Below, in pieces: positions 1,822-20,201 of a stretch of DNA of 64,000 bases (positions are counted from its first letter, which is position 1; each line of letters begins with the position of its first letter). Made by a program: the position numbers and the translations under genes. The notes beneath the pieces were generated by a model that ran no database searches, was not told the DNA's origin, and saw only the letters and a program-made list of their open reading frames with translations. Origin of the DNA: Verrucomicrobiota bacterium (GTDB lineage: Bacteria > Verrucomicrobiota > Kiritimatiellia > CAJWTS01); contig JAQBYD010000011.1 of NCBI GenBank assembly GCA_027623315.1, positions 4,108-68,107 of the forward strand, given 5' to 3'.

Positions 1822-3747
1822 TCAAGACCCGATCCGCGACCCCGTGGGCATTCGCGGCCGCCCATGAGAGGTGCGGATCTGCGTTGCCGCTCCGCCTCTC
1901 GCGGGTCGGGGCCCGGTCGTCGGGGCGACCGCGTCATCCCACGCGCTGACCGACTGGTTGGTATAGGCAATGCCTCGCACGTCGGCCGGCCGGTCGTCCA
2001 GCGTACGAATGCGCAGACCAGCCTGCCACTGGCCCTGCCATTGGTTGATCCGATACAGGATGCGGTTAAGTCCCTTGCGGAGCATAACCGGTTTGTCCAG
2101 CGCCGTGCGGATCGCCGTGCCCTCCTCGGTAATTGTCATGACCTTGTCGCCGTTGATCCAGACGATCAGGTTGTCGTCGCCCATTCCCTTCAGCAGGTAC
2201 GTCCCTGCCGCCGCGGCCGAGACTTCGGTATAGGCGTAGGCCGAAGCCTCGGGCATGGCATTGTAGGTCCGGCCCGAGAACATCTTGCCGAAGTCCATCA
2301 GCGCGAAGGGGTCGGTATTCGCCTCGTCATAGCGGGACCAGGCGGTCACCATGCTCCTGATTTCACACGGATTCTGCGGAATCTCTACCGACTCCGGTGC
2401 CGCCGTCTCCGAGACCTGCATGTAGGGCAGTGGCCCGAGTATGCGCCAGTCGTAACCGCGATACAGGACTAAGGTGCGCTCCTGCACAAGTTTGTTCTCG
2501 TGCAGCAGACGACAGCGCAGCAGGTACTCACGCTTGTCGAGCGGACGAGGCAACTGCAGGTCGTAGGGGAACCGCAAGAGCCGGTGATCGGCCGCCAGCA
2601 GTGGTAGCAGCCTTCGGCGTGTCCGCCCCCCGGGCAGATCGAGGGTCAGTTCGAGGGACGACCGTTCGAGATCTAACCGGTTGTTGAGCACATAGATCTC
2701 TACCGAAGGATCGTTCGTCGCTCCGATCGCCAGGGCATCGCAGGTCAGGCTTAGCACGGCCGGCGGAGACTCGGTCCCCGTAATCGACGTCGGTGGATCG
2801 AGCCCGATGTATGTGCGCGAGCCCGGCGGCGGGGCGGAATTCGTCGGGGTGAGCAGAACCTGATCCACTTTGACATCATCCTGGTAAACGCGAAAACCGG
2901 CGTAATTCGGTCCGTGCATGAGATGTACGGGAGGCGTTCGATGCCACAACCAGACATAGGGTGTCGACCCGTTGTGGCCGACCACGGTTTGCGCGCGACC
3001 ATTGAAATTCATATTGATCATATTCGAACACTGCGAGCGGTGCGCCATGGTGCGCACCCATACGTAGTACGTGCCGGTTTCCGGAACGATAAACCAACAT
3101 CGCGCTTCGATCGGACGGTTGTCGCCGGTGACGTTATACACGTCTCCTGCCCGCCGATCGGGATGGACCTCCTTCGCGGAGTAGTCTACGTCGCCGCGCC
3201 CTTCTTTAAGGTGAATGTATGCTCCGCCGCCGGCGTCCGCCGCTTGCCGGATCTCCCAGCCGTACGAAAGAAACTGAAAGTGCTCGGCCTCCAACACTAT
3301 TTCCTGTGGGCCGGGCCGAATCGCATCCCCGGCCTCGCTATAGATGGCTTCCCCGGTCAGGGCGTCGCGGCGAATAGGCGGCGCCGGCACCTCAAGCAGC
3401 AGCGGCTGATCATGACGAATCAATCCGCGGATCGGAAACGGCCCGGGCCAACTCAGTACACCCGTGGTCGGATCCCAGAGCAACGGCGCCTGCGGCGCCC
3501 GATCGTTGGCGGGCCCGCACCGTATCAGAGATGCCGGCAGGTAGCCGTCGACGAGTTCAATGAGTTCTTGAGGGAACCGCGCCTGGTCCAAACGGAAACG
3601 TAGGATCGCGTCGCGTACCTCCCAGACGTGCCGCCGTTCCGCGTCCAGTCGGATGCGGTCGGAGCGCGCGAGCCAGCGGTCGGCAACCCAGCCTGAGGCG
3701 GCGAGCCCGGCGAGAAGTATAAAGACGATGGCCACTCTCTTAATCAT
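1822..3747 (-). CDS. Membrane-anchored/secreted hypothetical protein with a T2SS GspG-like (pseudopilin) fold segment and two lectin/CBM-like repeats
   Basis: 641-aa ORF. N-terminal hydrophobic anchor MIKRVAIVFILLAGLAASGWVA. ILRFRLDQARFPQELIELVDGYLP resembles the GspG C-domain motif (LDxxRLDNGxYPTxxQGLxAL). Repeated GTYYVWVRT / GTYLLKG...IVWINGD beta-sandwich-like segments. No classical prepilin leader. Confidence 0.5.
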   Translation of the reverse strand: MIKRVAIVFILLAGLAASGWVADRWLARSDRIRLDAERRHVWEVRDAILRFRLDQARFPQELIELVDGYLPASLIRCGPANDRAPQAPLLWDPTTGVLSWPGPFPIRGLIRHDQPLLLEVPAPPIRRDALTGEAIYSEAGDAIRPGPQEIVLEAEHFQFLSYGWEIRQAADAGGGAYIHLKEGRGDVDYSAKEVHPDRRAGDVYNVTGDNRPIEARCWFIVPETGTYYVWVRTMAHRSQCSNMINMNFNGRAQTVVGHNGSTPYVWLWHRTPPVHLMHGPNYAGFRVYQDDVKVDQVLLTPTNSAPPPGSRTYIGLDPPTSITGTESPPAVLSLTCDALAIGATNDPSVEIYVLNNRLDLERSSLELTLDLPGGRTRRRLLPLLAADHRLLRFPYDLQLPRPLDKREYLLRCRLLHENKLVQERTLVLYRGYDWRILGPLPYMQVSETAAPESVEIPQNPCEIRSMVTAWSRYDEANTDPFALMDFGKMFSGRTYNAMPEASAYAYTEVSAAAAGTYLLKGMGDDNLIVWINGDKVMTITEEGTAIRTALDKPVMLRKGLNRILYRINQWQGQWQAGLRIRTLDDRPADVRGIAYTNQSVSAWDDAVAPTTGPRPARGGAATQIRTSHGRPRMPTGSRIGS

Positions 3748-3847
3748 GGTGATTTCGATTCCGTTGAACTCCTCGCGCCAGCCTTCGACAGCGCCGGACT
3801 AAATCTGATTGTTTTAGACCAATTCGCGCGGCTGAACAGGTGCTTGC

Positions 3848-4309
3848 CTACCGGCGTTGCATGCGGAACGTACCGTGGTCGCGCTCGCATTGGTAGTTGG
3901 CACGGAAGCTGGTGCCGGTCACCCCGCCGCTGTAGGTGTACACTCCTCCCGCCAGGGCGCCCAGGTCGGCCTGGCCGGTGAAGGAGTAGGCGCCCGCGCT
4001 TCCCTCGACGTCTACCGGAAGGGAGTATTCGAATCGCAGGATTCCCATGTACGTCGCGCGGTATCGGGTCTCGAGCCTGGAATCCTGCATTGGGCTAATG
4101 ATACAGCGCAGGCCGCCGTGATGCCCATTGGCGTCGCTTTGCCAGGATCCCTGCCAGAGGCCGGCCAGTTCATCGTGGGCCGCGTCTGCGTGGTGGCGCC
4201 AGTCCCGGTTGAAGGTAGAACAACCGCCGGCAAGCAAGCCCGCAAGAGCCAACGCCAGGGTCACTGGGGTCATAGGTCCCGCTGCAAGACTACGAATACC
4301 GCGTTTCAT
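3848..4309 (-). CDS. Hypothetical lipoprotein
   Basis: ORF 3848..4366. A likely start is the internal MKRGIRS followed by the LAGLLAGGCS lipobox. No recognisable family. Confidence 0.4.
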   Translation of the reverse strand: MKRGIRSLAAGPMTPVTLALALAGLLAGGCSTFNRDWRHHADAAHDELAGLWQGSWQSDANGHHGGLRCIISPMQDSRLETRYRATYMGILRFEYSLPVDVEGSAGAYSFTGQADLGALAGGVYTYSGGVTGTSFRANYQCERDHGTFRMQRR

Positions 4310-4594
4310 TTTACAATGCAGTAGCCATGTTTGTTCTCTCTGTATTGCGTGTGAAGTGCGGCTCACTCGCTGTCATCGATCATTCAACACTAGTAGAAGA
4401 CATTCCGCACTACGATTCAATTTCGCACCTTTTTCCTTGTATTCACACGCCTGTCAGCTACGGTTGTAGACGAGTGTCGCGGAGGAGCTTACCGCGCATC
4501 TGTCCGCGCTGGGGAGCGCGTTCTTTCATTGGCAGCCCCGCGAACGCGCCGACAGATTGAATCTACGATTAGAGAAACAGGGGATCGACCAAAG

Positions 4595-6814
4595 ATGAAT
4601 CGCACTAATGTATCGTTGTTGGGCGTCGGGCTTGGCGTCTTGATGGTGGCCACCTTCATCGAAGCCGCCGACTCGCCGCATTGGCGCGGTCCGGGTCAGA
4701 ACGGCGCTTCCGCAGAGTCCGGCTTGCCGGAGACCTGGTCCCCGGACGGAGAGAACCTGCTGTGGAAGGCCGCTGTCGGTTGCCGGTCAACGCCGGTGAT
4801 TCTGAACGACCGCGTCTACCTGATTAACCGTGTGGGCGAAGGGGCGCATCGGCAGGAACGTGTGATGGCGCTCGATCTCAACACGGGCGAAATCGTGTGG
4901 GAACATCGCTTCAACGTGTTTCTGACCGACGTCGTGTTTCATCGCGTGGGCTGGGCGAACATCGTTGCCGATCCTGAGACCGGGTACGTGTACGCTCACG
5001 GTATCCAGGGCATGCTCTTTTGCTTCGACAAGGATGGTAAGATCATCTGGAAACGTTCGCTGACCGAGGAACTCGGCCGAATATCGGGGTATGGCGGGCG
5101 TACGAACTCGCCCATTCTTGAGAACAACCTGCTGATCATTAGTTCGCTGACCAGTGGGTGGGGTCCGCATGGCCGGGGACTGCATCGCTTCGTCGCCATG
5201 GATAAGCGCACCGGGGAGATTCAGTGGTGGTCGGCGCCAAGTGGGGCGCCGCTGGATACAACGTATTCGGTTCCGATCACGACGACTTTGGACGGTCGGC
5301 GTGTCATGTTGACCGGCCTGGCCGACGGTACGATCGTCGCGATGCGTCCGAGTACCGGCGAGAGACTGTGGCAGTTCGAGTTGAGCAAGCGCGGAATCAG
5401 CAGTTCCGTAGTCTATGGCGACGGCCGTGTGTATGGCGCGCACAGCGAGGAGAATCTGGATTCGGTGCTGATGGGTCGCGTGGTCTGCCTTGATGCGCGC
5501 ACCGGTAAAGAGATCTGGCGGGTGGATGGCCTGGCTTGCGGGTACGCCTCGCTCTCGCTTGCTGACGGGTTGCTCTACGTGCCCGAGAACGCAGCCAACC
5601 TGCACTGCATCGACGCCGTGTCCGGAGAACGCCTTTGGCAATTTAACTACGGAAACGAAGCCAAGGGCTCGCCGATGATCGCCGACGGCAAAGCGTACGT
5701 GGGCGACGGGCACGGGTCCTGGAGCATCCTCAAGGTGTCCCGCGAGGGGTGTGAGTCGTTGAGCAAAGTGCACTTCGAGCTTCCCGATGGGTCCCCTGAC
5801 GAGGTCTACGCGACGCCCGCGATCGCCCATGGGCGGGTGATCATGCCCACGATGCACAATCTCTACTGCGCGTCCGGAAAAGCGGCGGACTTTCGATCAC
5901 CGGGCGAGGCGGTCCGATTTGGAGCCGACGCAAAGATCGAGGCGGGGCCCCTTGCGCATGTGCAAATCGTGCCGGCCGAGGCATGGGCGGCGCCCGGAGA
6001 GCAGCTGTCTTTCAGCCTGCAGGGATTCGACGCCGACGGGAATGCCCTCGGGTCCGTCGAGGGCGCATCGTTTTCTACCAAGGACTTGGCCGGTTCGGTC
6101 GCGCCCGACGGTACCTTCACGGCGGCCGGCGATCGGATCCTGGCTGGCGCTGTCATCGGAAAGTCCGGCGACTCGACATCCAGCGCACGGGTTCGCGTCG
6201 TGCCGCCGTTTCCTTATAAGGAGGATTTCGAGAATGGGAAGCCGGGACTTCCTCCATCGGGCTGGATCACGTCCAAACTAAAATGCCAGGTCACCGAGCA
6301 TGAAGGCGGCAAAGTTCTGCGCAAGCTCGCCGACCGCCCTGCGCCGCCGTTCGCCCGGCTGCGCTGCTACATCACCCCGCCCGTAGCGAGTGGATATACA
6401 ATACAGAGCGACATCCTGGGCGTACCCAAGAAAAAACGGCTTTTGCCCGACATGGGTCTGATCAACAGCAGGTACCTGCTGATTCTGACCGGCACCTCCG
6501 AGCGCACGCGGACGTTGCGCCTGGTTTCGTGGGCTCCGGTGCCGCGGGTCATTAGCGAAATCGACTTTCCATGGATCGGCGACACCTGGTATACGGCGCG
6601 GCTAAGTGTCGACGTCGCTGAGGGCAAGGGCGTCGTGCGCGCAAAGGTCTGGGCGCGCGGAGAGGATGAACCCGAAGCCTGGTCCCTCGAGATGACCGAC
6701 CCCGTTCCGAATCTAGAAGGAAGTCCGGGCCTGTATGCCTATTCCGTCGGCGTGACGGAGAAATCGAAAGGAACGGAAGTCCTGTTCGATAACGTTCTTA
6801 TCGAGCGGAACTAG
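4595..6814 (+). CDS. PQQ-like beta-propeller repeat protein (BamB/YVTN type) with signal peptide and a C-terminal non-propeller domain
   Basis: ORF 4529..6814. The start was moved to MNRTNVSLLGVGLGVLMVATFIEA, a signal peptide. Repeated blades of the G.L.A.D..TG...W type throughout. Paralogue of 6912..8333 and 55788..57047. Confidence 0.7.
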   Translation: MNRTNVSLLGVGLGVLMVATFIEAADSPHWRGPGQNGASAESGLPETWSPDGENLLWKAAVGCRSTPVILNDRVYLINRVGEGAHRQERVMALDLNTGEIVWEHRFNVFLTDVVFHRVGWANIVADPETGYVYAHGIQGMLFCFDKDGKIIWKRSLTEELGRISGYGGRTNSPILENNLLIISSLTSGWGPHGRGLHRFVAMDKRTGEIQWWSAPSGAPLDTTYSVPITTTLDGRRVMLTGLADGTIVAMRPSTGERLWQFELSKRGISSSVVYGDGRVYGAHSEENLDSVLMGRVVCLDARTGKEIWRVDGLACGYASLSLADGLLYVPENAANLHCIDAVSGERLWQFNYGNEAKGSPMIADGKAYVGDGHGSWSILKVSREGCESLSKVHFELPDGSPDEVYATPAIAHGRVIMPTMHNLYCASGKAADFRSPGEAVRFGADAKIEAGPLAHVQIVPAEAWAAPGEQLSFSLQGFDADGNALGSVEGASFSTKDLAGSVAPDGTFTAAGDRILAGAVIGKSGDSTSSARVRVVPPFPYKEDFENGKPGLPPSGWITSKLKCQVTEHEGGKVLRKLADRPAPPFARLRCYITPPVASGYTIQSDILGVPKKKRLLPDMGLINSRYLLILTGTSERTRTLRLVSWAPVPRVISEIDFPWIGDTWYTARLSVDVAEGKGVVRAKVWARGEDEPEAWSLEMTDPVPNLEGSPGLYAYSVGVTEKSKGTEVLFDNVLIERN

Positions 6815-6831
6815 TTGCTCCGCAGAGGATT

Positions 6832-6887
6832 TTGACAGGACGATTACTCGACAGGACGATTATCTGAGTACCCCTTACCCCCTTACC
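6832..6887 (+). promoter_or_regulatory. Direct-repeat motif pair (gacaggacgatta x2 with 16-nt period, then ccttacc x2) plus a TTGACA hexamer in the 97-bp spacer upstream of the second PQQ-propeller gene
   Basis: Read directly from the sequence at 6834-6846 and 6850-6862. TTGACA lies at 6832-6837. AGGAGA Shine-Dalgarno before ATG 6912. Confidence 0.3.
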
Positions 6888-6911
6888 ACTCGCCATAACA
6901 GGAGACCACCC

Positions 6912-8333
6912 ATGCACAAGCACCTCACCTACCTGACGTGTACCGTCCTATGCTCCACCGCGCTCAACGCCGCCGATGTTCCTCAGTGGGGCGCCGGGCC
7001 GAATCGTAACATGGTCAATACGGTCGAGAAGGGGCTGCCGACGGAATGGGATATCAAGTCTGGTAAGAATGTTAAGTGGTCGGTCAAGCTCGGATCCCAG
7101 TCGTATGGAAATCCCGTGATTGCGGATGGTAGCGTTTTTGTGGGAACGAACAACGAGGGAGGGTACGACCCGGAGGTCAAGGGGGACAAGGGCAACATCC
7201 TCTGCTTCGCCGAGAAGGACGGCGCCTTTCTCTGGCAGGCGGTGCACGACAAACTGAGCGCAGGCCGCGTGAATGATTGGCCGTACCAGGGCATCTGCTC
7301 AACGATCTGTATCGAGGGCGATCGCGGCTGGTACCTGAATAACCGCTGCGAGGTCGTCTGCATCACCACACGCGGCATGGTCGATGGAAAGAACGAGGGC
7401 GTTCAGGACGAGACGTACTCGGGGGCCAAGAAAGCCGATGTGATCTGGCGCTACGATATGATCGAAGAACTCGGCGTATTTCCGCATAACCTCGCAACCT
7501 CGTCGCCAATTGTTCACGGAGACCTGGTGTTTGTCGTCACCGGGAACGGCGTGGATGAAGGGCACCTCAATCTTCCTTCCCAGGTGTCGCCGAGCTTCGC
7601 GGCATTCAATAAGAAGACCGGTGAACTGGCCTGGGAGTACGCCGTCGAAGGCAGGATCCTGCACGGGCAATGGTCGTCGCCATCCATCGGGATTGTGAAT
7701 GGAAAGGCACAGGCTATATTTCCGGGTGGTGATGGTTGGATCTACTCCCTCGAGCCCGCGACCGGGGAACTAATCTGGAAGTTCAACTGTAACCCCGTCG
7801 ACGCCACGTGGGAACTCGGGGGCTACGGGACGAAGAACAATCTGATCGCGACGCCAGTCGTTCTCGACGACAAGGTCTACATCGGGGTCGGTCAGGATCC
7901 GGAGCACGGGACCGGTACGGGGCACCTTTACGCGATTGACGCGACCGGCAAGGGAGACGTCACGCAGTCCCACCAGGCGTGGCATCTCGGTGGCGATGAC
8001 TTTGGGCGTACGATGAGCACCGTCGCGATTCACGAGGGCCTGCTCTACGTGTCGGAATTGTCCGGCGTTCTCTTCTGCATCGAGGCCGCCACGGGAAAAG
8101 TGATATGGAAACACGATCAGCAGGCCTCGGTTTGGGGATCGAGCATGGTTGTGGATGGCCACGTTTACATCGGCGACGAAGACGGTGATGTGACGGTGCT
8201 TGAGCAGGGCCGGGAGCTTAAAGTCATAAACACGATCAATATGGGCGAGTCGGTCTATACCACGCCCACCGCAGCTAATGGCGTGCTTTACATCACCACG
8301 AAGTCGCATCTATATGCGATCGCGAGTGAGTAA
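6912..8333 (+). CDS. PQQ-like beta-propeller repeat protein (BamB/YVTN type), secreted
   Basis: 473-aa ORF. Signal peptide MHKHLTYLTCTVLCSTALNAA. Propeller blade repeats (LYAIDA.TGK..W, LYVS...G.L.C.EA.TGK..W). Confidence 0.7.
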   Translation: MHKHLTYLTCTVLCSTALNAADVPQWGAGPNRNMVNTVEKGLPTEWDIKSGKNVKWSVKLGSQSYGNPVIADGSVFVGTNNEGGYDPEVKGDKGNILCFAEKDGAFLWQAVHDKLSAGRVNDWPYQGICSTICIEGDRGWYLNNRCEVVCITTRGMVDGKNEGVQDETYSGAKKADVIWRYDMIEELGVFPHNLATSSPIVHGDLVFVVTGNGVDEGHLNLPSQVSPSFAAFNKKTGELAWEYAVEGRILHGQWSSPSIGIVNGKAQAIFPGGDGWIYSLEPATGELIWKFNCNPVDATWELGGYGTKNNLIATPVVLDDKVYIGVGQDPEHGTGTGHLYAIDATGKGDVTQSHQAWHLGGDDFGRTMSTVAIHEGLLYVSELSGVLFCIEAATGKVIWKHDQQASVWGSSMVVDGHVYIGDEDGDVTVLEQGRELKVINTINMGESVYTTPTAANGVLYITTKSHLYAIASE

Positions 8334-8409
8334 GCCGCTTTCAATGATGGTTACCGGCCCCAGCAGGCGTAGCCTAACCGCACGAGAGGAGACCCGCGTT
8401 ACCGCGTCC

Positions 8410-10455
8410 ATGAAATTCATTCCAATGCTCTGCTTCCTTGCCGTCGCCACGTCGCTCCTGGCCGAAGAGCCCGGCAATCTTCCCAGGATTATCGTCGAAG
8501 CGGAGGCCCTGCCGCCGGGGCCGGATATCTCCGCGAGTTGGAACTTCGACCTGGCCCCGCTGTCGACGCCGATCCAGGCAACCGTGCTTGGTGAAGAACT
8601 GATTAAGGCCCAGGGGGCTGAGAGCCTCGAGGATGTGCTCTGGAACTCGGCGGGGATCACAACCGCGACCGGTAACGGAATTCACGACTTCTTTGTCGTT
8701 CGAGGAGTCGACTCGCTTAACGGCGGGCTGACACTGGTCGACGGCATCCCCGAGCCCGAGTCCACGGTCTACCCCATGCAGCTCTACGAGGCGATTCACA
8801 TTCTCAAGGGGCCGATTGCGTTTGCGCACGGACCGAACGCACTGGCGGGATCGGTGAACCTTCTGCGGCGGCAGCCGGTCTCGGATCCGTTTGCCAGGCT
8901 CGATTTGACGGCGGGCAGCGAGGATAAGCTGCGTGCGGTGATCGACGCGGGACGCCCCTTAAGTGATGACGCCAACGCCCGGATCACCGCGCTTTACCAG
9001 GACGCGGAGAGTTATCGAGACGGTATCGAGAGCGAGATTCTCGCAGTGAGTCCGTCGGTACTTCTACAGCTCTCCGACGACCAGACCCTGCGTATTCACT
9101 ATGACTACCTGCGCAGTGACGTGATTCCCGATGCGGGGGTCCCGGTTTTTGGCGACCGACTCGTTGTGGACTCGCGCTCCGCGACGTTCCATCTGCCCGG
9201 CGACGATTCCGAGCAGGATGTCCATCGGATTCTCGTGGAGTATAAGGACTCACTCAACGAGCAGGTTGACCTCCGAAGTCGCACCTATTATACGCGCCTG
9301 GATTGGCAGAGCCAGGGCACCATTCTGGCCAGCTTCCCGCTCGCCTTGACGGGGCTGGAGGCGGAACCGTCCACGCTCGCGCGGCTGCGCGGCGTGCTCG
9401 ATGATGACCAGAACATCTTTGGCCAGGAGCTGGAGCTCAGCACGCAGATTGAGGCAGCGGGGCTCGAGCATGAGTTCGTGCTGGGGCTCGAGGCCATGCG
9501 CTTTACGGACGAGTTCACGATTCTGATCGAAGAGGCGCCCGCGATCGCCCTTGCGAGCGGATTCACCTTTCCGCTTCCACTACCGGGTCCGCCACCGAAC
9601 ACCGGCGATGCCAAGTCCGAGATCTATAGCGCGTACCTGCATGACCACGTGGTGATCGATGACCGCTGGTCCCTGGTCGCCGGCGGCCGAGTGGACGCCC
9701 TGGACTTCGAGGATGATGCGCGGGGCACCAGTCGCTCGGATACGGAATTCAGTCCGTTCGGCGGATTGGTGATGCGAGCATCCGATCAGCTCGCCGTTTT
9801 TGTGAACGGTGGGGTCGGGTTCGCGCCGCCATCGACGCAGGTCGTTGGGCCGCGCGGTGAGCCGGAAGAGAGCCTGCAGGTCGAGGCTGGGCTCAAGATG
9901 AGATCGGAAGACGCCGACTGGTTCTGCCAGCTATCAATCTACCACTTGGAGCGTGACCATATTTCCATCCCTGAGTCGGTCGGAATCTTTACGCGTAACG
10001 GCTCGCAGGAATCGCGCGGCGTCGAGATCGAGGTGCAGGGCGAAGTCGGTCCGGGTGTTCGAGTCCTCGCGGCCTATGCGTATCTCGATAGCGAACTCGA
10101 GACGTTCGCCGAAATGCTTGGGCCGTTCGTGAGTGACCGGAGCGGCAACACGACTCCGTTTGCGCCTGAACATACCTTGCGCCTGTGGGGCATACTGGAC
10201 GTCTCCGACAGCCTTGCCCTCGCGCTCGGGGTGCGCGCGGTGGACGACCAGTTTATCGCACCGGACAATGCGTACCAGATCGATTCGTATGCCACGTTCG
10301 ATGCGGCGATTCATTATACGACGGAACGCTGGAGTCTTTCCGTGCACGTAGAGAATCTCTTCGGCGAGGATTACGCCACGCGCGGCACCGCCAGTACCTC
10401 GGTTATTCCTGAGGATGATCTGTCCGCCTACGCCACCCTCGCGCTCACGTTGTGA
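8410..10455 (+). CDS. TonB-dependent outer-membrane receptor
   Basis: ORF 8278..10455. Start moved to MKFIPMLCFLAVATSLLA, a signal peptide. Plug-domain motifs (IIVEAEALPP..., VLGEELIKAQGAESLEDVLWNSAGI, GGLTLVDGIP) and a long C-terminal beta-barrel region. Confidence 0.8.
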   Translation: MKFIPMLCFLAVATSLLAEEPGNLPRIIVEAEALPPGPDISASWNFDLAPLSTPIQATVLGEELIKAQGAESLEDVLWNSAGITTATGNGIHDFFVVRGVDSLNGGLTLVDGIPEPESTVYPMQLYEAIHILKGPIAFAHGPNALAGSVNLLRRQPVSDPFARLDLTAGSEDKLRAVIDAGRPLSDDANARITALYQDAESYRDGIESEILAVSPSVLLQLSDDQTLRIHYDYLRSDVIPDAGVPVFGDRLVVDSRSATFHLPGDDSEQDVHRILVEYKDSLNEQVDLRSRTYYTRLDWQSQGTILASFPLALTGLEAEPSTLARLRGVLDDDQNIFGQELELSTQIEAAGLEHEFVLGLEAMRFTDEFTILIEEAPAIALASGFTFPLPLPGPPPNTGDAKSEIYSAYLHDHVVIDDRWSLVAGGRVDALDFEDDARGTSRSDTEFSPFGGLVMRASDQLAVFVNGGVGFAPPSTQVVGPRGEPEESLQVEAGLKMRSEDADWFCQLSIYHLERDHISIPESVGIFTRNGSQESRGVEIEVQGEVGPGVRVLAAYAYLDSELETFAEMLGPFVSDRSGNTTPFAPEHTLRLWGILDVSDSLALALGVRAVDDQFIAPDNAYQIDSYATFDAAIHYTTERWSLSVHVENLFGEDYATRGTASTSVIPEDDLSAYATLALTL

Positions 10456-10679
10456 GGCTCGTCGTTGTCATAGCGGGGCTCATCCTCTTCGTTCTGCACC
10501 AGGACTTCTGGAACTGGAACGAGAGCCGCCTGGTCTTGGGGTACATGCCCATCGGTTTGGCCTATCACGCGCTCTATTCGATCGCGGCCTCCCTTTTCTG
10601 GGCGTTCGCGATCCGTTTCGCGTGGCCGAAGGATCTTGAAGAGTGGGCGGAACAGGCCGACGGGACGGGCGCCGAATGA
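10452..10679 (+). CDS. DUF3311-like small membrane protein (sodium:solute symporter companion)
   Basis: 75-aa two-TM ORF with a GTG start overlapping the receptor stop (GTGA). Its stop overlaps the symporter ATG (ATGA). This position immediately upstream of an SSS transporter is characteristic of DUF3311. Confidence 0.55.
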   Translation: MRLVVVIAGLILFVLHQDFWNWNESRLVLGYMPIGLAYHALYSIAASLFWAFAIRFAWPKDLEEWAEQADGTGAE

Positions 10680-12208
10680 CGGCACTGGTGGTCATTCTGC
10701 TCTACCTGGCGCTGCTGCTGACGTTGGGATTTGCCAGCCAGCGATTCTTTCGGGGCACCAGCCAGGACTACTTTGTGGCCAGTCGTAGCATCGGTCCGTT
10801 CCTGCTGCTGATGTCCGTCTTCGGAACCACCATGACCGCCTTCGCGCTGGTGGGCTCTACCGGTGAGGCGTACCGCCACGGCATCGGAACCTACGGCATG
10901 TTGGCATCCTATTCAGGGCTGATCCACTCAGCCGTGTTCTTCGTGATCGGGATCCGCGTCTGGGCGATATCGAAGCGCAACGGCTACGTGACCCAGATCC
11001 AGTACTTCCGCGACCGCTTCGAGAGTAGTGGACTCGGCTATGTTCTGTTCCCGATCCTGGTCGGGCTGGTGATTCCCTATCTTCTGATCGGGTTGCTCGG
11101 CGCGGGGAGCGTCGTGCGCTCCATCACGATCGATCCGGGTCGTGAGTGGCTGAACGCCGGCGTCCCGCCCTGGCTCACGGGTCTGGTGATCAGCTCCATC
11201 GTGCTGACCTATATCTTTCTTGGCGGCCTGCGCTCGGCGGCCTGGGCCAATACGTTCCAGACGATTGTCTTCATGGCGACGGGACTCATCACGATCTGGG
11301 TCATCTCATCCAAGCTCGGCGGGGCATCGGCCGCTAGCGAGGCCGTGCTGGCCAACATGGCGCAGAAGGCCAAGTTGAGTCGTGAGAACATTCCGCCCAT
11401 GCAGTTCTTATCGTACGCCATCATTCCGCTTTCGGTCGGGATGTTTCCGCATATCTTCCAGCACTGGCTCACCGCACGCAGCGCCAAATCATTTCGCCTG
11501 GCACTGATTGCGCATCCGCTCTGCATTATGATCGTCTGGGTGCCCTGCATCCTGATCGGTGTCTGGGCCACGAGTGCGGTGTTCCCTGTGGGCCACGTAC
11601 GGGCCGGCGACTTGATTGTGCCGCTGAAGCATCCGCCCAACGCCGAACTCGCGATCATGGTCAAGGCGCTCACCACGCCGGCGCTGGCGGGACTCCTCGC
11701 CGCCGGCATCCTCGCGGCGATTATGTCGTCACTGGACTCCCAGTTTCTCTGTCTCGGCACCATGTTCACGAACGACGTGGTGTTCCACGCCTGCGGAGAG
11801 AGCCGCTTCTCGGAGAAGCAGAAGATCCTCATGGCGCGTGGCTTCGTGGTGGCGATCGTGATCGTGACATACCTGTTGTCCCTGCTTGAACCGCGCCAGG
11901 TATTCAAGATGGGCGTATGGTGTTTTACCGGCTTCGGGAGTCTCTTTCCGCTCGTCTTTGCCGCACTCTACTGGCGGCGCACGACCGCCGCCGCCGCGTA
12001 TGCCTGTGTGATTCTAACCGCCGCGACGTGGCTCGCGCTCTTCGCGAAATCCGGATGGGGCAAGACCTATCTCCTCCTGACCGACCTCAAGCTGATGCCG
12101 GCGACCTTGACCTTCGCGGTCGCCGTCGTGAGTATCGTGGTGGTCTCTCTCGTCACGCGGCCGCCTTCTGACGCGACCCTCGATCGATTCTTTCGGCGAA
12201 CGGGATGA
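10676..12208 (+). CDS. Sodium:solute symporter (SSS) family transporter
   Basis: ORF 10643..12208. Start MTALVVILLYLALL. Multi-TM protein with SSF-like segments (GTSQDYFVASRSIGPF..., GLRS..WANTFQ). Confidence 0.85.
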   Translation: MTALVVILLYLALLLTLGFASQRFFRGTSQDYFVASRSIGPFLLLMSVFGTTMTAFALVGSTGEAYRHGIGTYGMLASYSGLIHSAVFFVIGIRVWAISKRNGYVTQIQYFRDRFESSGLGYVLFPILVGLVIPYLLIGLLGAGSVVRSITIDPGREWLNAGVPPWLTGLVISSIVLTYIFLGGLRSAAWANTFQTIVFMATGLITIWVISSKLGGASAASEAVLANMAQKAKLSRENIPPMQFLSYAIIPLSVGMFPHIFQHWLTARSAKSFRLALIAHPLCIMIVWVPCILIGVWATSAVFPVGHVRAGDLIVPLKHPPNAELAIMVKALTTPALAGLLAAGILAAIMSSLDSQFLCLGTMFTNDVVFHACGESRFSEKQKILMARGFVVAIVIVTYLLSLLEPRQVFKMGVWCFTGFGSLFPLVFAALYWRRTTAAAAYACVILTAATWLALFAKSGWGKTYLLLTDLKLMPATLTFAVAVVSIVVVSLVTRPPSDATLDRFFRRTG

Positions 12209-12243
12209 CTTGACGTCGGTTCCTTTGCGCAAGGGCACACGCC

Positions 12244-13671
12244 ATGAGCATTCCACTGATTCCCGCATATCGGTTTGGCGAGACGTACGAGAGTCTTGAC
12301 GTCACCGAGATCACGAATTTCCGATCCGGAGATCCGCTGGCGCGCGTTGGAAGTGTGAACGCGGGAGTCATTCGGCGTGATCTGCGCCGGATCGATGCGG
12401 CGTTCACCGAATTCCAGAAATCATCTGTAGGACAGATGCTGGCGATCTGTGCCCGTGCTGCCGATCTGTTCATGCAGGGCGATGTGCCCGTGTCGGAGGG
12501 TGCCTTGCAGTCGCCGCAGGACTACGTTGAGATGCTCTCGGCAACGGGTGGCCTTCCGCATGCCCTCGTTCGCGGTAACATGGAAAAGATCGCGCATGTC
12601 CTGAGGGAAATGCCCACCGTCTTGAAAGGGCTGACGCGCGGACTCGACGTCGAGCAGTTGCAGGAGGGGGTGTGGCAGCAGGACGGTTTGACGCTCAGTT
12701 ATGCGCCGTCGACGACCCATCTCGGCGTGGTGTTGCCCAGCAATTCGCCCGGCGTGAACTCGTTGTGGCTTCCCGCGGTGGCCCTGCGCGTGCCCGTTCT
12801 GCTCAAGCCCGGGCGGGAGGACCCATGGACGCCGTGGCGAATCATCAACGCATTGCTCGCCGCCGGTTGTCCGGGCAGCGCCTTTGGGTTTTATCCAACC
12901 GATCACGAAGGTGCGGATGTGGTCAGCTCAAGCTGTAAACGGGTCATTCTTTTCGGGGATGCCAAGACCGTGGAGCGCCACACCGCGAACCCGAACGTGA
13001 GCGTTCACGGCCCGGGCTACAGCAAGGTGATTCTTGGTGCTGATGAGGCGGAGAACTGGGAGTCGCACATCGACTTGATGGCCGACTCGGTCGTGCACAA
13101 CGGCGGGCGCAGTTGCGTGAACGCGTCGACCATCGTGGTTCCGGCTCACGGCCGCGATGTGGCGCGGCGCCTCGCCGAGCGCCTCGCCGAGGTGAAGCCC
13201 ACGTCGCAGGACGACCCCGCAGCGCAACTCGCCGCGTTTCTCAACCTCCAGGTTGCCGATGCCATTGAGGCCATGCTCAACCAGGGGCTCGGGACGCCCG
13301 GAGCGGAAGATGTGTCGGAACCGCTGCGCGGTTCACGCGTCGTGGACTGCGATGGGCTGCGCTACCTGCTGCCCACCGTCGTGTACTGCGAGAAGTTGGA
13401 TCATCCCCTGGCAAAATCGGAATATCTCTTTCCGTATGTATCGGTTGTCGAGATCGCACAGGACGAGGTGCTCGACTGGATAGGTCCAACCCTCGTCGGC
13501 ACGGTGATCAGTTCCGATGAGACCTTCCGGCGCGCGTCGGCCGCGTGCGCGGACATCGACCGCTTGAACCTTGGCGCGGTTCCCACACCCACTGTACAAT
13601 GGGATCAGCCACACGAAGGCAACCTCTTCGAATGGCTGTACCATCGCCGTGCGATTCAGGTAGTTTCGTGA
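12244..13671 (+). CDS. ALDH-superfamily acyl-CoA/acyl-protein reductase, LuxC-like
   Basis: 475-aa ORF. ALDH-like core with non-canonical motifs that parallel LuxC rather than classical ALDH: NSP (PSNSPGVN), KPGREDPWTP, AGCPGSAFGFYP, VILFGDAKTV (LuxC VIVAWGGPDA), HGPGYSKVILG (LuxC KFGSKKSLCII), and catalytic Cys in NGGRSCVNAS (LuxC DQRACFSAQ). Confidence 0.55.
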   Translation: MSIPLIPAYRFGETYESLDVTEITNFRSGDPLARVGSVNAGVIRRDLRRIDAAFTEFQKSSVGQMLAICARAADLFMQGDVPVSEGALQSPQDYVEMLSATGGLPHALVRGNMEKIAHVLREMPTVLKGLTRGLDVEQLQEGVWQQDGLTLSYAPSTTHLGVVLPSNSPGVNSLWLPAVALRVPVLLKPGREDPWTPWRIINALLAAGCPGSAFGFYPTDHEGADVVSSSCKRVILFGDAKTVERHTANPNVSVHGPGYSKVILGADEAENWESHIDLMADSVVHNGGRSCVNASTIVVPAHGRDVARRLAERLAEVKPTSQDDPAAQLAAFLNLQVADAIEAMLNQGLGTPGAEDVSEPLRGSRVVDCDGLRYLLPTVVYCEKLDHPLAKSEYLFPYVSVVEIAQDEVLDWIGPTLVGTVISSDETFRRASAACADIDRLNLGAVPTPTVQWDQPHEGNLFEWLYHRRAIQVVS

Positions 13672-13711
13672 GGGCTCTAACCAAACCGTTCTTTCGAAAA
13701 GGAGATCGATT

Positions 13712-14251
13712 ATGAATTCAACGCAAGGTCCCCCCGGGATGATGTGGCTCGCCTTTGCTTTTATGACGGTCGTCATGTGGGGCCTCTACGGTATTTGCCT
13801 TCATAGCGGACAACTCGGCATGAGCGATCCGGAGAATGGCCGCTACAAAGCGTTTCTGATGGTCGGAGTTGCGTATTTCGTGACCGCGGTGCTCGCGCCC
13901 GCCTTGCTGCTGATTCTGCGCGACGCCACCTGGGCATTTCCTGCCAAGGGTCTCGTTTGGTCTTTGGTCGCGGGGCTTGTAGGCGCGGGGGGTGCGTTCT
14001 GCGTGCTTCTCGCCTTCGGCGCCAAAGGATCTCCGGCAGTCGTGATGACCATCGTCTTTGCCGGCGCTCCGATTGTGAACGCCATCGTCGCCATGTCAAT
14101 GCATCCGCCGGCGGGCGGCCTGAAGTCGGTACCCAAGCTCTTCTTCGTCGGCATCCTGATGGCCGCGCTGGGCGGCGCGCTGGTTACCCTCTTCAAGCCC
14201 AATCCGGCGCCGAAAGGATCCGCGCCGGCACCGTCGCAGGAGGTCCGATAG
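13712..14251 (+). CDS. Small polytopic membrane protein (EamA/DMT half-domain-like)
   Basis: 179-aa ORF with 4-5 predicted TM helices. Inserted between the LuxC-like and LuxE-like genes. Its stop overlaps the next start by 1 nt. Confidence 0.5.
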   Translation: MNSTQGPPGMMWLAFAFMTVVMWGLYGICLHSGQLGMSDPENGRYKAFLMVGVAYFVTAVLAPALLLILRDATWAFPAKGLVWSLVAGLVGAGGAFCVLLAFGAKGSPAVVMTIVFAGAPIVNAIVAMSMHPPAGGLKSVPKLFFVGILMAALGGALVTLFKPNPAPKGSAPAPSQEVR

Positions 14252-15297
14252 TGCCCGAAGCGCTCGACCAGCACGTGCGCGAGATGATGGCCTGGCATTT
14301 CGGGCCGGATACCGGGTGCCCTTTCTGGTTGGCCTGGGCCGGCAAGCAGGGCTGGGATCCCCGCGAGGAGGTGCAGGGGTTCGACGATCTCGCCAGGTTT
14401 CCGAACTTCGATGGTGAATGGTTGCGTTTCGAGCAGCCCGAACAGTGGGTGCCACAAGCGTTCGTGGGCCGGCCCTACAACATCTTTGAGACCGGTGGCA
14501 CGACAGGCATGCCGAAACAGCGTATCGGTTGGGACGACTACAAAGTCGACTACGAGTCGTTTGGCGACACGCTCAGCGATGACGAGTTTCCACGCGGTCG
14601 CAACTGGCTGATGATGGGGCCCACCGGGCCGCGCCGTCTGCGCCTGTCCATCGAGCATCTCGCGAACTACCGCGGCGGCAGTTGCTACTTCGTTGACCTT
14701 GATCCGCGCTGGGTCAAGCGCCTCATCGTCAACGGCGACCTCGATCAAGCCAAGGCCTACATGGAGCATGTGATAGATCAGGCCGTCATGATTCTTGAAC
14801 ATCGCGACGTTGCCGCGGTATTCACCACGCCGCGACTGCTGGAGTCGCTTGGCGAGAAGGTTTCGATTCCCGATGCGGGCATCAAGGGGGTGTTTTGCGG
14901 CGGCACCGAGATGAGCCCGCAGAATGTGCGCTTCCTCGTCGAAGAGGTGCTGGAGGGGCGGGTCGCCTTCAAGCCCGTGTATGGCAATACACTCATGGGG
15001 CTTGCACATAGTAAGCCTCTCGTTGCACAGGACAACTTCTCCGTAACCTACTATGCGCCGCAACCCCGCGCCGTGACTCGAGTGGTCGATCCGAATCGTA
15101 CGGACCAAGTCGTCGATTACGACACGTGGGGACGCGTGGAGTTGACCACGATGACGAAGGAGTTCTTCATGCCTTGCTTCCTTGAGCGTGATGAAGCGAT
15201 CCGCCGCGGCCCTGCCGATGGCTATGCCTGGGACGGAGTGGGGGAGGTGCGCCCCTTCGGCGCCTCAGAGACCAAGATTGTGGAAGGGGTGTATTGA
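14251..15297 (+). CDS. Adenylate-forming acyl-protein synthetase/ligase, LuxE/PaaK-like
   Basis: Within ORF 13957..15297. Start chosen at GTG 14251, 7 nt after a perfect AGGAGG. P-loop-like FETGGTTGMPKQ (compare PaaK SSGTTGKP and LuxE SSGTRG). About 348 aa, similar to LuxE size. Confidence 0.5.
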   Translation: MPEALDQHVREMMAWHFGPDTGCPFWLAWAGKQGWDPREEVQGFDDLARFPNFDGEWLRFEQPEQWVPQAFVGRPYNIFETGGTTGMPKQRIGWDDYKVDYESFGDTLSDDEFPRGRNWLMMGPTGPRRLRLSIEHLANYRGGSCYFVDLDPRWVKRLIVNGDLDQAKAYMEHVIDQAVMILEHRDVAAVFTTPRLLESLGEKVSIPDAGIKGVFCGGTEMSPQNVRFLVEEVLEGRVAFKPVYGNTLMGLAHSKPLVAQDNFSVTYYAPQPRAVTRVVDPNRTDQVVDYDTWGRVELTTMTKEFFMPCFLERDEAIRRGPADGYAWDGVGEVRPFGASETKIVEGVY

Positions 15298-15360
15298 GTC
15301 CGCGCCGCCGCCCACCACTCACTACTCACTACCCACTTCCTGACTCGTAACTGCTGAACC

Positions 15361-16518
15361 ATGAATCTCGACGCCTCCAACCTCCCCGTCCCCCTCGTCC
15401 AGGGCGAGGGCACGCTGTCCCAACTCGGTTCCCGGGTTGCAGGGCTGGGCGTATCGCGTGTCCTGCTGGTGACGGACAAGGGTGTCAGCGCCGCGGGTCA
15501 TCTGGAACCGGCACTGGACTCTCTCAAGGCATGCGGGTGTGACGTATCCGTTTTCGACAACGTGCATGCAAACCCCACGGAACTGGATGTTCTCGCCTGC
15601 GTGGCCGCGGCGAAGAATCACGGTGCGGAGGCATTGATCGGATTCGGCGGCGGGAGCAGCATGGATGCTGCCAAGGGATGTAATTTCATCCTTACGAATG
15701 GTGGCGCGATGAGTGACTACTGGGGCGTCGATAAGGCGACGCAGCCGATGTTGCCGTTCGTTGCCGTTCCGACCACGGCCGGAACCGGCAGTGAGTGCCA
15801 GCGATTCGCATTGATCTCCGATTCCACGACCCATCGCAAGATGGCGTGCGGAGATATCAAGGCGCGCGCACGCTTTGCGATTCTCGATCCACGCACGACG
15901 TTGACCCAGCCGCCGTTTGTCGCCGCTTGCACGGGCGTGGATGCGGTGGCGCATGCCGTTGAAACCGCTGTCACCGTGAAGCGCAACTCGCAATCACTTG
16001 AGTTCTCATATGATGCGTTCCGGCGATTGTCCGCCAATATCCACGCCATTATGCGTGACCCGGGCAACGTGATCGCGCGAGCGGAGATTCAACTCGGCGC
16101 TTCGCTGGCGGGTGCGGCGATCGAGTGTAGCATGCTCGGCGCGGCACATGCCGCAGCCAATCCCCTGACGGCGATGTGCGGCACGATTCACGGCCAGGCC
16201 GTTGGGATCATGTTGCCCGGAGTGGTGCGTCTTAATGGGGAAGACGGCGACGCGGCGGCGGCCTACCGTGATCTGACGGCGGCGGCAGGACTTCCGTTCG
16301 ACGGAACGGACAGGGGAGCTGTGACCGCCCTGGCCGATTGGCTCAGCGCCTTGCTCCATGATCTCGATCTGCATCGCCCGCTCCGCACCTTGGGCGTGAC
16401 CCGCGAGATGATTCCCCGGCTCAGCGCGGGTGCCGCCGAAGAGTGGACCGGAACCTTCAATCCGAGACGGTTGACGTCCGACGACTTTGCGCGCCTCTAC
16501 AGTCAAGTGCTCGATTAG
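15361..16518 (+). CDS. Iron-containing (group III) alcohol dehydrogenase
   Basis: 385-aa ORF. GFGGGSSMDAAK motif, GTGSE, and the His-rich metal-site region of Fe-ADH. Confidence 0.85.
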   Translation: MNLDASNLPVPLVQGEGTLSQLGSRVAGLGVSRVLLVTDKGVSAAGHLEPALDSLKACGCDVSVFDNVHANPTELDVLACVAAAKNHGAEALIGFGGGSSMDAAKGCNFILTNGGAMSDYWGVDKATQPMLPFVAVPTTAGTGSECQRFALISDSTTHRKMACGDIKARARFAILDPRTTLTQPPFVAACTGVDAVAHAVETAVTVKRNSQSLEFSYDAFRRLSANIHAIMRDPGNVIARAEIQLGASLAGAAIECSMLGAAHAAANPLTAMCGTIHGQAVGIMLPGVVRLNGEDGDAAAAYRDLTAAAGLPFDGTDRGAVTALADWLSALLHDLDLHRPLRTLGVTREMIPRLSAGAAEEWTGTFNPRRLTSDDFARLYSQVLD

Positions 16519-17197
16519 CTCCACTCGCGGGAGTCGGGGACGTTCATCCACGCCCCTTCCACGACGCCGGATACCGCGGCACCATCGTCCCGGTTCATGT
16601 TCCGCAGATGGACTACAACGTTCACGAAGACGATATTGTCGCCACCGCGCATGCGATCGGGTATATGCAGGCGCTGCTGGAGCAGGCCCAGACGCAATAG
16701 TCGCACCCCTGTGCCGAAAGCCGCACCGATAATCTCCGAGACCCGTAGACGACGGTAAGGATTGGGGTAAAGACGAAGAACGGAATCAGCACACAGCGAG
16801 CTAGCAATTCTCCTTGCGCGCCTCCCGTATCCCTATATGATCGCCACCGTTCGGGCGCATGCGCGCTATCCGTGAATAAGCAGCGTTGTCGGCAATGGCG
16901 AACATTGAAATAGAATGCCCCCACTGCGGAGTCCTCGCGAAGGCCCCTGATGAATTTGCGGGTCATTGCCGTCGGTGCTCATCCCTCCACGACCAACACT
17001 GAGCAACCGCTGGGCGAGAAGCGAATGGGGCTCTAGACCAATAGAGCAATTCCCGCCGATAGAGACGCGCCAGCATGGGTCTAAGGTCGTCGTAATCAGA
17101 TTTCCGGCCGGACTTCCAAAGTTTGCTTCGATTTGTCATAGTCAGTCGTCCCGTAGATGGCGTAAGAATACGGAAGAATTTCCAGAGAGAGATCGAA

Positions 17198-17356
17198 ATG
17201 CAATCGTTTAGCGAAAATCTGAATCTAGTCGTGCTCTTCGCGTTCGTTGTGTTGATCGTCATGGTGGTCATCTCGGAAGTCGTTGAGAAGATCAAGGATC
17301 GGCGAAAGGACCGGCCTGCCCCCCGCGAGACTGAGGAGGGTGACCCGCCCGACTGA
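17198..17356 (+). CDS. Small single-TM hypothetical protein (52 aa)
   Basis: Internal ATG of ORF 17123..17356, preceded by GAGAGAGA. Hydrophobic stretch LVVLFAFVVLIVMVVI. Lies in a lower-GC region. Confidence 0.3.
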   Translation: MQSFSENLNLVVLFAFVVLIVMVVISEVVEKIKDRRKDRPAPRETEEGDPPD

Positions 17357-17358
17357 TC

Positions 17359-17916
17359 GTGTCATCGCCCATCAAAAAATGCGTCAAGAGAATCGTGCCG
17401 CGGCGGTTCTGGCATTGGTTTATGGCGAATAATGACCGCCGCTTCTGGCCGTTCATGGGCGTGCCCGAAACGATGAAAGGCCTGCTGGATCCCGTCGGCT
17501 ACGACCTCGCGGACGGGTGCTTGCTGGAGGCGTTTTGGGTCGACCGGACGGACTCGATTGGCAACCGGGATCTCGGCCCCTCGGCGGTCGTCGTGGTGCA
17601 TGGCTCCGAGATCCTCAAATTCGACTGCTATGGCGAGTTGGGCGGCCACTACCACGTCTCGACGCCGTACCCCAGGTTGAGCCGCAACGGGCTTCACGGT
17701 CGAATCCAGATGCCGGAGAAGACGGTTGGAGATCAGATCGACCGGGCGATCTTTGAGTTGGAGAACAACCTGACCTACTACTTGCAGACCCATCCCCGGG
17801 CGAAGGTTTGTAACGCCCGCATCGACCCGGCGAGACTCGCCACGGTCTGCGGCCAGATGAAAGCGAAGATGCTGGCCGATGAAAAGACGTACAGGAAAAG
17901 GGGGCGGCGCCATTAG
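17359..17916 (+). CDS. Hypothetical protein
   Basis: 185-aa ORF with no recognised family. The opposite-strand ORF 17362..17913 is its shadow. Confidence 0.45.
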   Translation: MSSPIKKCVKRIVPRRFWHWFMANNDRRFWPFMGVPETMKGLLDPVGYDLADGCLLEAFWVDRTDSIGNRDLGPSAVVVVHGSEILKFDCYGELGGHYHVSTPYPRLSRNGLHGRIQMPEKTVGDQIDRAIFELENNLTYYLQTHPRAKVCNARIDPARLATVCGQMKAKMLADEKTYRKRGRRH

Positions 17917-18257: not shown

Positions 18258-18307
18258 AGCTATCCGTGTTCGTAGTAGGAAAAGTGTGAGATATCCTGGC
18301 ACAGGGA

Positions 18308-19395: not shown

Positions 19396-19438
19396 AGCCA
19401 GACCGAGAGTTAAATCCAAACCAACAAAAGGAATACAT

Positions 19439-20173: not shown

Positions 20174-20201
20174 ACGTCAAGTTAGTCTGTTTGATTCTGA
20201 G

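Follow-up and report, generated by a model that had tools for sequence, protein, structure and literature searches.

Single-chain carboxylic acid reductases such as Nocardia Car, with the domain order A-PCP-R, use ATP and NADPH to convert an acid to an aldehyde via an acyl-adenylate. The LuxC/LuxE fatty-acid reductase is a split system composed of an ANL-type acyl-protein synthetase and a reductase of the aldehyde dehydrogenase (ALDH) fold. EhpF and EhpG belong to the pathway to D-alanylgriseoluteic acid, a phenazine of Pantoea agglomerans. EhpF is said to be an ANL enzyme that has no C-terminal domain, and EhpF and EhpG together have reportedly been proposed to convert phenazine-1,6-dicarboxylate to the 6-formyl compound via an acyl-adenylate. 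The ehpG gene, assigned to the "aldehyde dehydrogenase family," lies directly 3' of ehpF (PMC11278526). In the pathway by which Streptomyces griseus makes grixazone, according to the passage of PMC10179220 that cites Suzuki et al. 2007, GriC makes the acyl-AMP of 3-amino-4-hydroxybenzoate and GriD reduces the acyl-AMP to the aldehyde. Here we describe a block of nine open reading frames (ORFs), g1 to g9, that occupies positions 4595-16518 of a 64-kb stretch of contig JAQBYD010000011.1 from a Verrucomicrobiota bacterium (the window) and that includes relatives of these enzyme pairs (Table 1).

As judged by sequence, g8 and g6 have their homologues in a known enzyme pair for the ATP-dependent reduction of carboxylates to aldehydes. 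The alignment of g8 with EhpF spans the full length, the C-terminal domain is missing from both, and g6 is the EhpG-type partner; the partner genes are adjacent in the phenazine cluster, as are the ANL and ALDH-like genes of the cluster described here. The identity is, however, only 28-34%, and whereas EhpF and EhpG are found amid phenazine-core genes, the pair in the window is found amid importers, secreted propeller proteins, and an iron-dependent alcohol dehydrogenase (Fe-ADH). In addition, the window-type ANL enzyme is ~70% conserved across phyla, and the gene order in the window is ALDH-g7-ANL. As they are described in the source cited above, GriC and GriD follow the same two-protein logic, with an AMP-binding protein and an ALDH-like reductase, but their substrate is made inside the cell and not imported. 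LuxE and LuxC are similar in size to g8 and g6, but the block has no LuxD and no lipid context, and an assignment of g6 and g8 as LuxC and LuxE was rejected when neither PF05893 nor PF04443 was listed at E values up to 1. Unlike Nocardia Car, the block has no carrier-protein domain, short-chain dehydrogenase/reductase-type reductase domain, or phosphopantetheinyl transferase that could be detected with Pfam.

We see roughly even chances that the block is one functional unit through which an organic acid is imported and its carboxyl group reduced in the cytoplasm. This reading is based on the gene layout, the homologies, the conserved catalytic residues, the synteny, and the co-retention of the genes despite rearrangement. 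The components can all be assigned to known folds or families, and what appears to be undescribed is the combination, its breadth, and its conservation. Full-text literature searching found no published description of this gene combination, in line with the preliminary description of the stretch, made from its letters and ORFs, in which the combination was not recognized as a described one.

The adenylating enzyme g8, its partner g6, and the alcohol dehydrogenase g9

A profile of g8 and 12 relatives matched EhpF (PDB 3l2k and 3hgu) with an E value of 4e-55, covering EhpF residues 12-366 of 366, and none of the other solved ANL enzymes gave an E value better than 0.4. The match of g8 (348 amino acids [aa]) to the Pfam AMP-binding model is partial and AMP-binding_C was not detected, so that g8 has the EhpF-type architecture in which the C-terminal domain is missing. 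In a 13-sequence sample, 133 of the 348 positions are invariant, as is the P-loop, ETGGTTGMPK. The identity of g8 to the EhpF homologue of a phenazine cluster included in our comparison (locus L084) is 34%, and that of g6 to the ALDH-family gene beside that homologue is 28% (E value of 5e-39). g6 also matched the equivalent partner in Streptomyces goshikiensis (E value of 4e-25), whereas its matches to ordinary ALDHs in the PDB did not exceed 35 bits. In both the phenazine and the Streptomyces clusters the ALDH partner lies directly 3' of the ANL gene; in the window g6 is followed after 40 nt by g7 and then by g8, which makes g6 an EhpG-type neighbor.

g6 belongs to the ALDH superfamily (60 bits against Aldedh, PF00171; cut-off, 23), and across 46 sequences (g6 and 45 relatives) the catalytic Cys291 and the oxyanion residue Asn167 are invariant. 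The position of the general-base glutamate (Glu268 in ALDH2 numbering) is occupied by histidine (His255) in 45 of the 46 and by glutamine in the remaining one, an EhpG-type sequence. With its general base replaced, g6 does not have the features of a hydrolytic NAD(P)+-dependent aldehyde dehydrogenase, and the retention of Cys291 and Asn167 together with the change to His255 therefore fits an enzyme that would reduce its acyl-enzyme intermediate instead of hydrolyzing it.

g9 has the domains of an Fe-ADH (165 bits against PF00465 and 102 bits against PF25137). In the PDB it comes closest to methanol dehydrogenase, FucO, and DhaT, and no NCBIfam equivalog was reached. The EhpF-like family, which comprises 223 clusters at E values of ≤1e-30 in a library of 50% representatives, contains two informative fusions: in P0178 (824 aa) a distant EhpF-like ANL domain is fused to a class III aminotransferase, and in P0228 (725 aa) such a domain is fused to a Zn-dependent alcohol dehydrogenase. 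Fusion to aldehyde-using enzymes supports a route from acid to aldehyde to alcohol (or amine) and hence the assignment of g9. Some homologues carry the NCBI name "arylcarboxylate reductase." The reductive module proposed in the preliminary description is supported by the homology of g8 and g6 to EhpF and EhpG and by the alcohol dehydrogenase alongside them.

Conservation of the cluster in other genomes

All 8000 of the scored candidates (protein clusters) matched g8, the best 120 being at least 70% identical to it, and their source names include Verrucomicrobiota and Planctomycetota. In a collection of one genome per species, at least 590 stretches encode a g8 relative, and the cluster appears to hold together in hundreds of species of the Verrucomicrobiota and Planctomycetota and in some of the Acidobacteriota. 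Synteny was scored by tblastn of the window proteins against 80 genome loci, the denominators given below being the loci with enough flanking sequence. The closest genome locus listed, in which the g8 relative is 77% identical, is that of a metagenome-assembled genome of the Sedimentisphaerales (Planctomycetota). The usual order in the 80 loci is propeller-L, propeller-S, DUF3311-SSS or a major facilitator superfamily (MFS) transporter, ANL, ALDH-like, and Fe-ADH, where SSS denotes the sodium/solute symporter family. In 47 of the 56 informative loci the ANL gene is preceded, on the same strand, by both propeller genes, and the ALDH-like gene directly follows the ANL gene in 30 of 63, with Fe-ADH downstream in 28 of 63. 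The genes flanking the clusters are unrelated between loci. The block therefore appears to be a conserved unit and more than a chance arrangement because it is conserved in relatives, and not because its genes are co-directional. Conserved co-localization in relatives had been named in the preliminary description as one of the points on which its proposal could fail, and it was found.

The gene immediately 5' of the ANL gene encodes an SSS permease in 29 of 75 loci, propeller-S in 22, an MFS protein in at least 10, and another protein in 13. The SSS stop codon touches or overlaps the ANL start codon in L086, L091, and L083. The alternative MFS protein is closest to aromatic-acid:H+ symporters, although well below the cut-off, and a TAXI-TRAP importer is encoded near the cluster in L090 and L001. 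In most relatives, then, the gene just before the ANL gene encodes an importer, the type of which is interchangeable, in agreement with the inner-membrane uptake step suggested earlier. The scheme of uptake and reduction in which that step was placed is supported for the importer and the reductase but gave no role to the two propellers, although no other genes accompany the ANL gene as constantly.

Rearranged versions of the cluster remain together. L086, a metagenome contig, holds all nine genes in the order ANL-ALDH-FeADH...g7 and with other flanks, the identities being 73% for g1, 78% for g2, 63% for g3, 68% for g4, 87% for g5, 60% for g6, 85% for g7, 76% for g8, and 52% for g9. The order in L091 is FtsX, PQQ-L, PQQ-S, TonB-dependent receptor, DUF3311, SSF, and ANL, followed by a cut gene in the ALDH position, and L088 encodes an ANL enzyme 97% identical to g8 in the order ALDH-g7-ANL, as in the window. 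Among cultured organisms, Fontisphaera persica has a MarR gene and then PQQ-L, PQQ-S, DUF3311, SSF, ANL, Aldedh, Fe-ADH, and PQQ. In Sulfidibacter corallicola (Acidobacteriota) an ANL-Aldedh-FeADH-propeller-radical SAM group is divergent from PQQ-L, PQQ-S, and HupE_UreJ_2, the two halves still being adjacent. In this organism the two propeller genes are directly followed by the HupE_UreJ_2 gene (L093:11543-12637), which encodes a member of a metal-permease-like family and takes the slot held elsewhere by the SSS or MFS gene. A MarR regulator gene lies divergently upstream in 25 loci, mostly of Verrucomicrobiota.

Many relatives continue past Fe-ADH, for example at L083:13792-17697, L089:13952-19646, L031:13596-18073, and L093:194-2747. 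The additional genes encode a third PQQ_2 propeller (22 loci), a radical SAM protein resembling HemN (12 loci), a cytoplasmic protein of 180-200 aa with a faint resemblance to chorismate lyase (10 loci), a hydroxylase/halogenase-like flavoprotein that comes nearest to CmlS, QhpG, and LodB at scores below their cut-offs (10 loci), a GT4 glycosyltransferase (7 loci), a 4HBT thioesterase (7 loci), a PaaK-like ligase (5 loci), and MacB-type ABC proteins. These genes hint at an aromatic flavor and keep a biosynthetic reading alive.

g7 had no match in Pfam, NCBIfam, or the PDB. Homologues of 54-85% identity were found in 11 loci at varying positions, among them L083:18327-18878 (59% identity) and L086:16106-16633 (85% by tblastn and 82% over the whole MAFFT alignment), and g7 is thus a mobile member of the Planctomycetota-type cluster. 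A relationship of g7 to the HupE_UreJ_2 protein of Sulfidibacter was considered and rejected, the comparison giving no relation.

Gene organization and transcription signals

Table 1. Genes of the block, with positions in the 64-kb window
Gene	Position	Strand	Product
g1	4595-6814	+	Secreted propeller protein, 739 aa
g2	6912-8333	+	Secreted propeller protein, 473 aa
g3	8410-10455	+	TonB-dependent outer-membrane receptor
g4	10452-10679	+	DUF3311 small membrane protein
g5	10676-12208	+	SSS permease
g6	12244-13671	+	ALDH-like, EhpG-type
g7	13712-14251	+	Membrane protein, 179 aa, five predicted helices
g8	14251-15297	+	Short ANL adenylating enzyme, EhpF-like; GTG start
g9	15361-16518	+	Group III Fe-ADH

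Direct reading of the sequence confirmed exactly the layout given in the preliminary description, in which nine consecutive plus-strand genes are separated by short gaps or joined by one of three stop/start overlaps. The g3 stop codon and the g4 start codon overlap in GTGA (10452-10455), those of g4 and g5 overlap in ATGA (10676-10679), and the TAG stop codon of g7 and the GTG start codon of g8 have base 14251 in common. The remaining gaps within the block are of 97, 76, 35, 40, and 63 nt. The g3 reading frame is open from 8278, and the start was taken as the ATG at 8410, which is followed by a signal peptide. The domain calls made earlier agree with our family searches, except that g7 and g8 had been left without an assignment.

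A consensus scan found six promoter-like sites (3.8 ± 2.1 in shuffled sequence) and 12 terminator-like sites (9.9 ± 2.7 in shuffled sequence), so that neither is commoner than in shuffled DNA, and none of the terminator-like sites falls in an intergenic gap inside the block. We infer that g1 to g9 are probably cotranscribed. Rfam gave no match to a riboswitch or RNA leader in 3700-17500 at E values up to 1, and the only match in the whole window was tRNA-His.

Transport proteins

g3 has the Plug (PF07715) and barrel (PF00593) domains of a TonB-dependent receptor and exceeds the cut-off of the siderophore-receptor model TIGR01783 (237.9 bits; cut-off, 223.5). Its nearest solved structures are FetA, FptA, FhuA, Fiu, and CntO, which include receptors for pyochelin, ferrichrome, catecholates, and pseudopaline. 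A receptor gene occupies the same slot in L086 (63% identity) and in L091. In the 80 genome loci, tblastn found no g3 homologue other than one weak partial match in L060 (26% identity, 35% coverage). Because a receptor in this slot was found only in the closest relatives, L086 and L091, g3 is a lineage-specific accessory outside the widely conserved core, and the receptor cannot be kept in the conserved unit to which the preliminary description had assigned it.

g4 matched DUF3311 (PF11755, 40.7 bits) and g5 matched the SSS family (PF00474, 129 bits), and the PF11755 gene lies immediately upstream of the PF00474 gene, the arrangement of an SSS permease with a DUF3311 partner. In the literature consulted, the one DUF3311-SSS pair discussed is that of the monocarboxylate/pyruvate permease MctP, which in Sinorhizobium fredii shares its regulation with a DUF3311 gene (PMC9100948). 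As in the MctP systems of rhizobia, the DUF3311 gene directly precedes the permease gene, and in the window it overlaps it, but g5 scored only 63 bits against the MctP model (cut-off, 625). The curated families nearest to g5 are PutP, PanF, and MctP; all of the scores are below the cut-offs, and no equivalog was reached.

Secreted propeller proteins

g1 consists of a signal peptide, an eight-bladed beta-propeller of the PQQ_2/BamB type (residues ~30-430), an Ig-like beta-sandwich (~455-535), and a jelly-roll (~540-739). The propeller matched PF13360 with 114 bits, and the AlphaFold model has a predicted local distance difference test (pLDDT) score of 90.5. Foldseek returned only propeller matches for g1 (BamB, tetrathionate hydrolase, and PedH/XoxF) at template-modeling (TM) scores of ~0.6, the propeller being ranked first over the C-terminal jelly-roll, and sequence searches of Pfam, NCBIfam, and the PDB found no match to that jelly-roll. 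g2 consists of a signal peptide and an eight-bladed PQQ_2-type beta-propeller (91 bits against PF13360; pLDDT of 87.7), for which Foldseek likewise gave only generic eight-blade matches at TM scores of ~0.6, to BamB, tetrathionate hydrolase, YxaL, and XoxF.

The eight-bladed fold is therefore common to g1, g2, BamB, tetrathionate hydrolase, and the alcohol dehydrogenases that depend on pyrroloquinoline quinone (PQQ) or lanthanides, but g1 and g2 are far below the cut-offs of the BamB and quinoprotein families and have no lipoprotein signal. Against the BamB models they scored 58-68 bits (TIGR03300; cut-off, 285) and 48-50 bits (PRK11138; cut-off, 423), and inspection of the signal peptides by eye found no lipobox cysteine in register. 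Against the models for PQQ-dependent dehydrogenases they scored 34-59 bits (TIGR03075; cut-off, 480) and 19-24 bits (TIGR03074; cut-off, 833).

In an alignment of 39 sequences the mean column identity of g2 is 65%, and g2 is 58-87% identical to the other 38, some of which have source names in the Planctomycetota, Verrucomicrobiota, and Acidobacteriota. This conservation is well above that expected of a scaffold protein such as BamB. The invariant residues include H192, H218, H251, H332, H338, H358, D215, E216, D329, and E331, as are those that immediately precede the innermost strand in most blades. They would form a conserved pocket and not a scaffold. In character the invariant His/Asp/Glu set would suit a metal or cofactor site better than a scaffold of the BamB type. 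A further paralogue of the PQQ_2-type propeller (623 aa) is encoded at 55176-57047 (+), 39 kb from the cluster, and weakly matches the family of the relatives' third propeller.

Possible function of the cluster

If the block is a unit for import and reduction, the substrate or a conjugate of it would cross the outer membrane, in this lineage through the receptor g3. In the periplasm the propellers g1 and g2 would bind or process the substrate, and this is the least understood step of the scheme. The DUF3311/SSS pair g4/g5 would then import the substrate, and g8, which has no domain for handling CoA or phosphopantetheine, would activate the carboxylate with ATP to give an acyl-AMP. g6, with its cysteine nucleophile and no hydrolytic glutamate, would take the acyl group and reduce it with NAD(P)H to an aldehyde, which the Fe-ADH g9 would reduce to an alcohol; g7 may be an accessory membrane protein. 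We infer which way the flux runs and that transport is coupled to adenylation. As for the substrate, we favor an aromatic or heteroaromatic acid, because the studied relatives of g8 and g6 act on aryl carboxylates, because a MarR regulator is often present, and because the neighbors of the cluster in relatives have an aromatic character. ATP- and NAD(P)H-dependent reduction of an aryl carboxylate by g8 and g6 is a putative activity on which homology and the fusion partners bear.

Several observations weigh against this reading. The characterized relatives, EhpF/EhpG and GriC/GriD, are all biosynthetic and not catabolic, and the activity of EhpF and EhpG has itself reportedly only been proposed. 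It is not obvious what a cell would gain by spending ATP and NAD(P)H to reduce an acid that it has imported. The propellers are left unexplained by structure searches that gave nothing beyond generic eight-blade matches, and PutP and PanF, against which g5 scores best, are not known carriers of aromatic acids. In half of the informative loci the ALDH-like and Fe-ADH genes are missing up to a distance of 10 kb from the ANL gene, and the reductase partner may therefore be encoded elsewhere, or the ANL enzyme may have another role, in those genomes. Finally, a weak promoter-like site lies upstream of g7, at 13571-13600.

That every studied homologue is biosynthetic would be accounted for directly if g8, g6, and g9 made an aryl aldehyde or alcohol as a building block for an endogenous metabolite that is exported, as in the pathways to grixazone and D-alanylgriseoluteic acid, with the receptor and the symporter recapturing the metabolite or its precursor and the propellers acting on it in the periplasm. 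The extended cluster of the relatives (the third propeller, the radical SAM, chorismate-lyase-like, CmlS/QhpG-like, GT4, 4HBT, and PaaK-like proteins) and the MacB-type ABC exporter alongside it would suit such a pathway. However, none of these extra genes is present within the 64-kb window, and the gene directly before the ANL gene is of the importer type; we know of no SSS or TRAP system that acts as an exporter. An identity of ~70% among the ANL enzymes of different phyla, together with their presence in at least 590 species, would also be unusual for secondary metabolism, and on balance we hold biosynthesis or recycling to be unlikely. The siderophore-receptor score of g3 and its nearest structures point in another direction, to the handling of a metallophore: a chelated metal would enter through g3 and be relayed by the propellers and the symporter, and reduction of a carboxylate ligand would free or recycle the metal. 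The HupE_UreJ_2 protein that follows the propellers in Sulfidibacter and the MacB-type ABC genes beside several versions of the cluster would also agree with this. The receptor was found, however, in only three contigs, the window included, and in most carriers the cluster lacks one; SSS, MFS-AAHS, and TRAP carriers are not, to our knowledge, the usual route of siderophores across the inner membrane. We therefore consider this explanation quite improbable.

An oxidative route, in which the propellers would be periplasmic quinoprotein-like dehydrogenases and g9 and g6 would oxidize an alcohol to an aldehyde and then to an acid, is suggested by the weak partial matches of g1 and g2 to models of PQQ-dependent dehydrogenases and by the common use of Fe-ADH and ALDH folds in alcohol oxidation. 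It strikes us as very improbable, since those matches (34-59 bits) face quinoprotein-family cut-offs of 480-650, since g6 groups with EhpG and has no general-base glutamate for hydrolytic oxidation, and since the adenylating enzyme, which uses ATP and is encoded by the set's most conserved gene, has no part in the scheme. A common strand is by itself weak evidence of a shared function, and the nine genes could in principle be mere neighbors on one strand with no functional link. We attach next to no credence to this, as it is contradicted by the synteny counts: the genes stay together across phyla while their flanks change, and L086 retains all nine despite rearrangement.

To return to the import and reduction of an organic acid, a more far-reaching form of the idea, which we offer as a doubtful speculation, is that the cluster might represent a widespread and so far unrecognized periplasm-to-cytoplasm pathway of Verrucomicrobiota, Planctomycetota, and Acidobacteriota. 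The His-rich propellers, which resemble "empty quinoproteins," would be new and possibly metal- or cofactor-dependent enzymes that release or transform an abundant environmental acid, perhaps an aromatic one, and a dedicated importer would pass this acid to a two-protein carboxylate reductase of unusual conservation. If so, primary metabolism would make use of an enzyme pair that has been known only in the making of antibiotics and pigments. g8 is ~70% identical between phyla and occurs in at least 590 species-level genomes, yet it is annotated only as "PaaK-like" or "hypothetical," and the link to EhpF/EhpG and GriC/GriD gives it a chemistry that can be tested. The conserved neighbors point to a physiological role in bacteria that abound in soil, freshwater, and sediment and whose metabolism is poorly known; Fontisphaera persica and Sulfidibacter corallicola are carriers in culture. 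Biocatalysis would also have an interest in two-protein carboxylate reductases, since these need no phosphopantetheinylation.

Surrounding genes

Two genes with no family match, at 1822-3747 (−; 641 aa) and 3848-4366 (−; 172 aa), lie divergently upstream of g1, a slot that is occupied by the MarR regulator gene in the Verrucomicrobiota versions of the cluster and by a MacB/FtsX gene in L086 and L091. Long antisense ORFs at 13843-15108 (−) and 4787-5857 (−) were rejected as genes, being artifacts that shadow real genes in GC-rich DNA. The antisense ORF families F4, F9, F10, F12, and F13 seem to be conserved across loci because the underlying genes are conserved, and they mislead the calling of longest ORFs.

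The G+C content is 0.60-0.63 up to ~16.5 kb and 0.54-0.59 thereafter. The low-GC stretch at 16519-24000 was considered as an island or prophage at tRNA-His (22697-22771, −) and rejected, since it holds ordinary genes and nothing phage- or integrase-like; its products include MscL, a DUF481 outer-membrane protein, DUF3465, and a scramblase-like protein. Elsewhere the window holds ordinary context genes, which together with the further PQQ_2 propeller are compatible with a member of the Planctomycetota-Verrucomicrobiota group; they encode an acetyl-CoA synthetase (33384-35435, −), a KatG-type catalase-peroxidase-like heme peroxidase (42428-44629, +), a sulfatase (45822-47363, +), and TrkAH.

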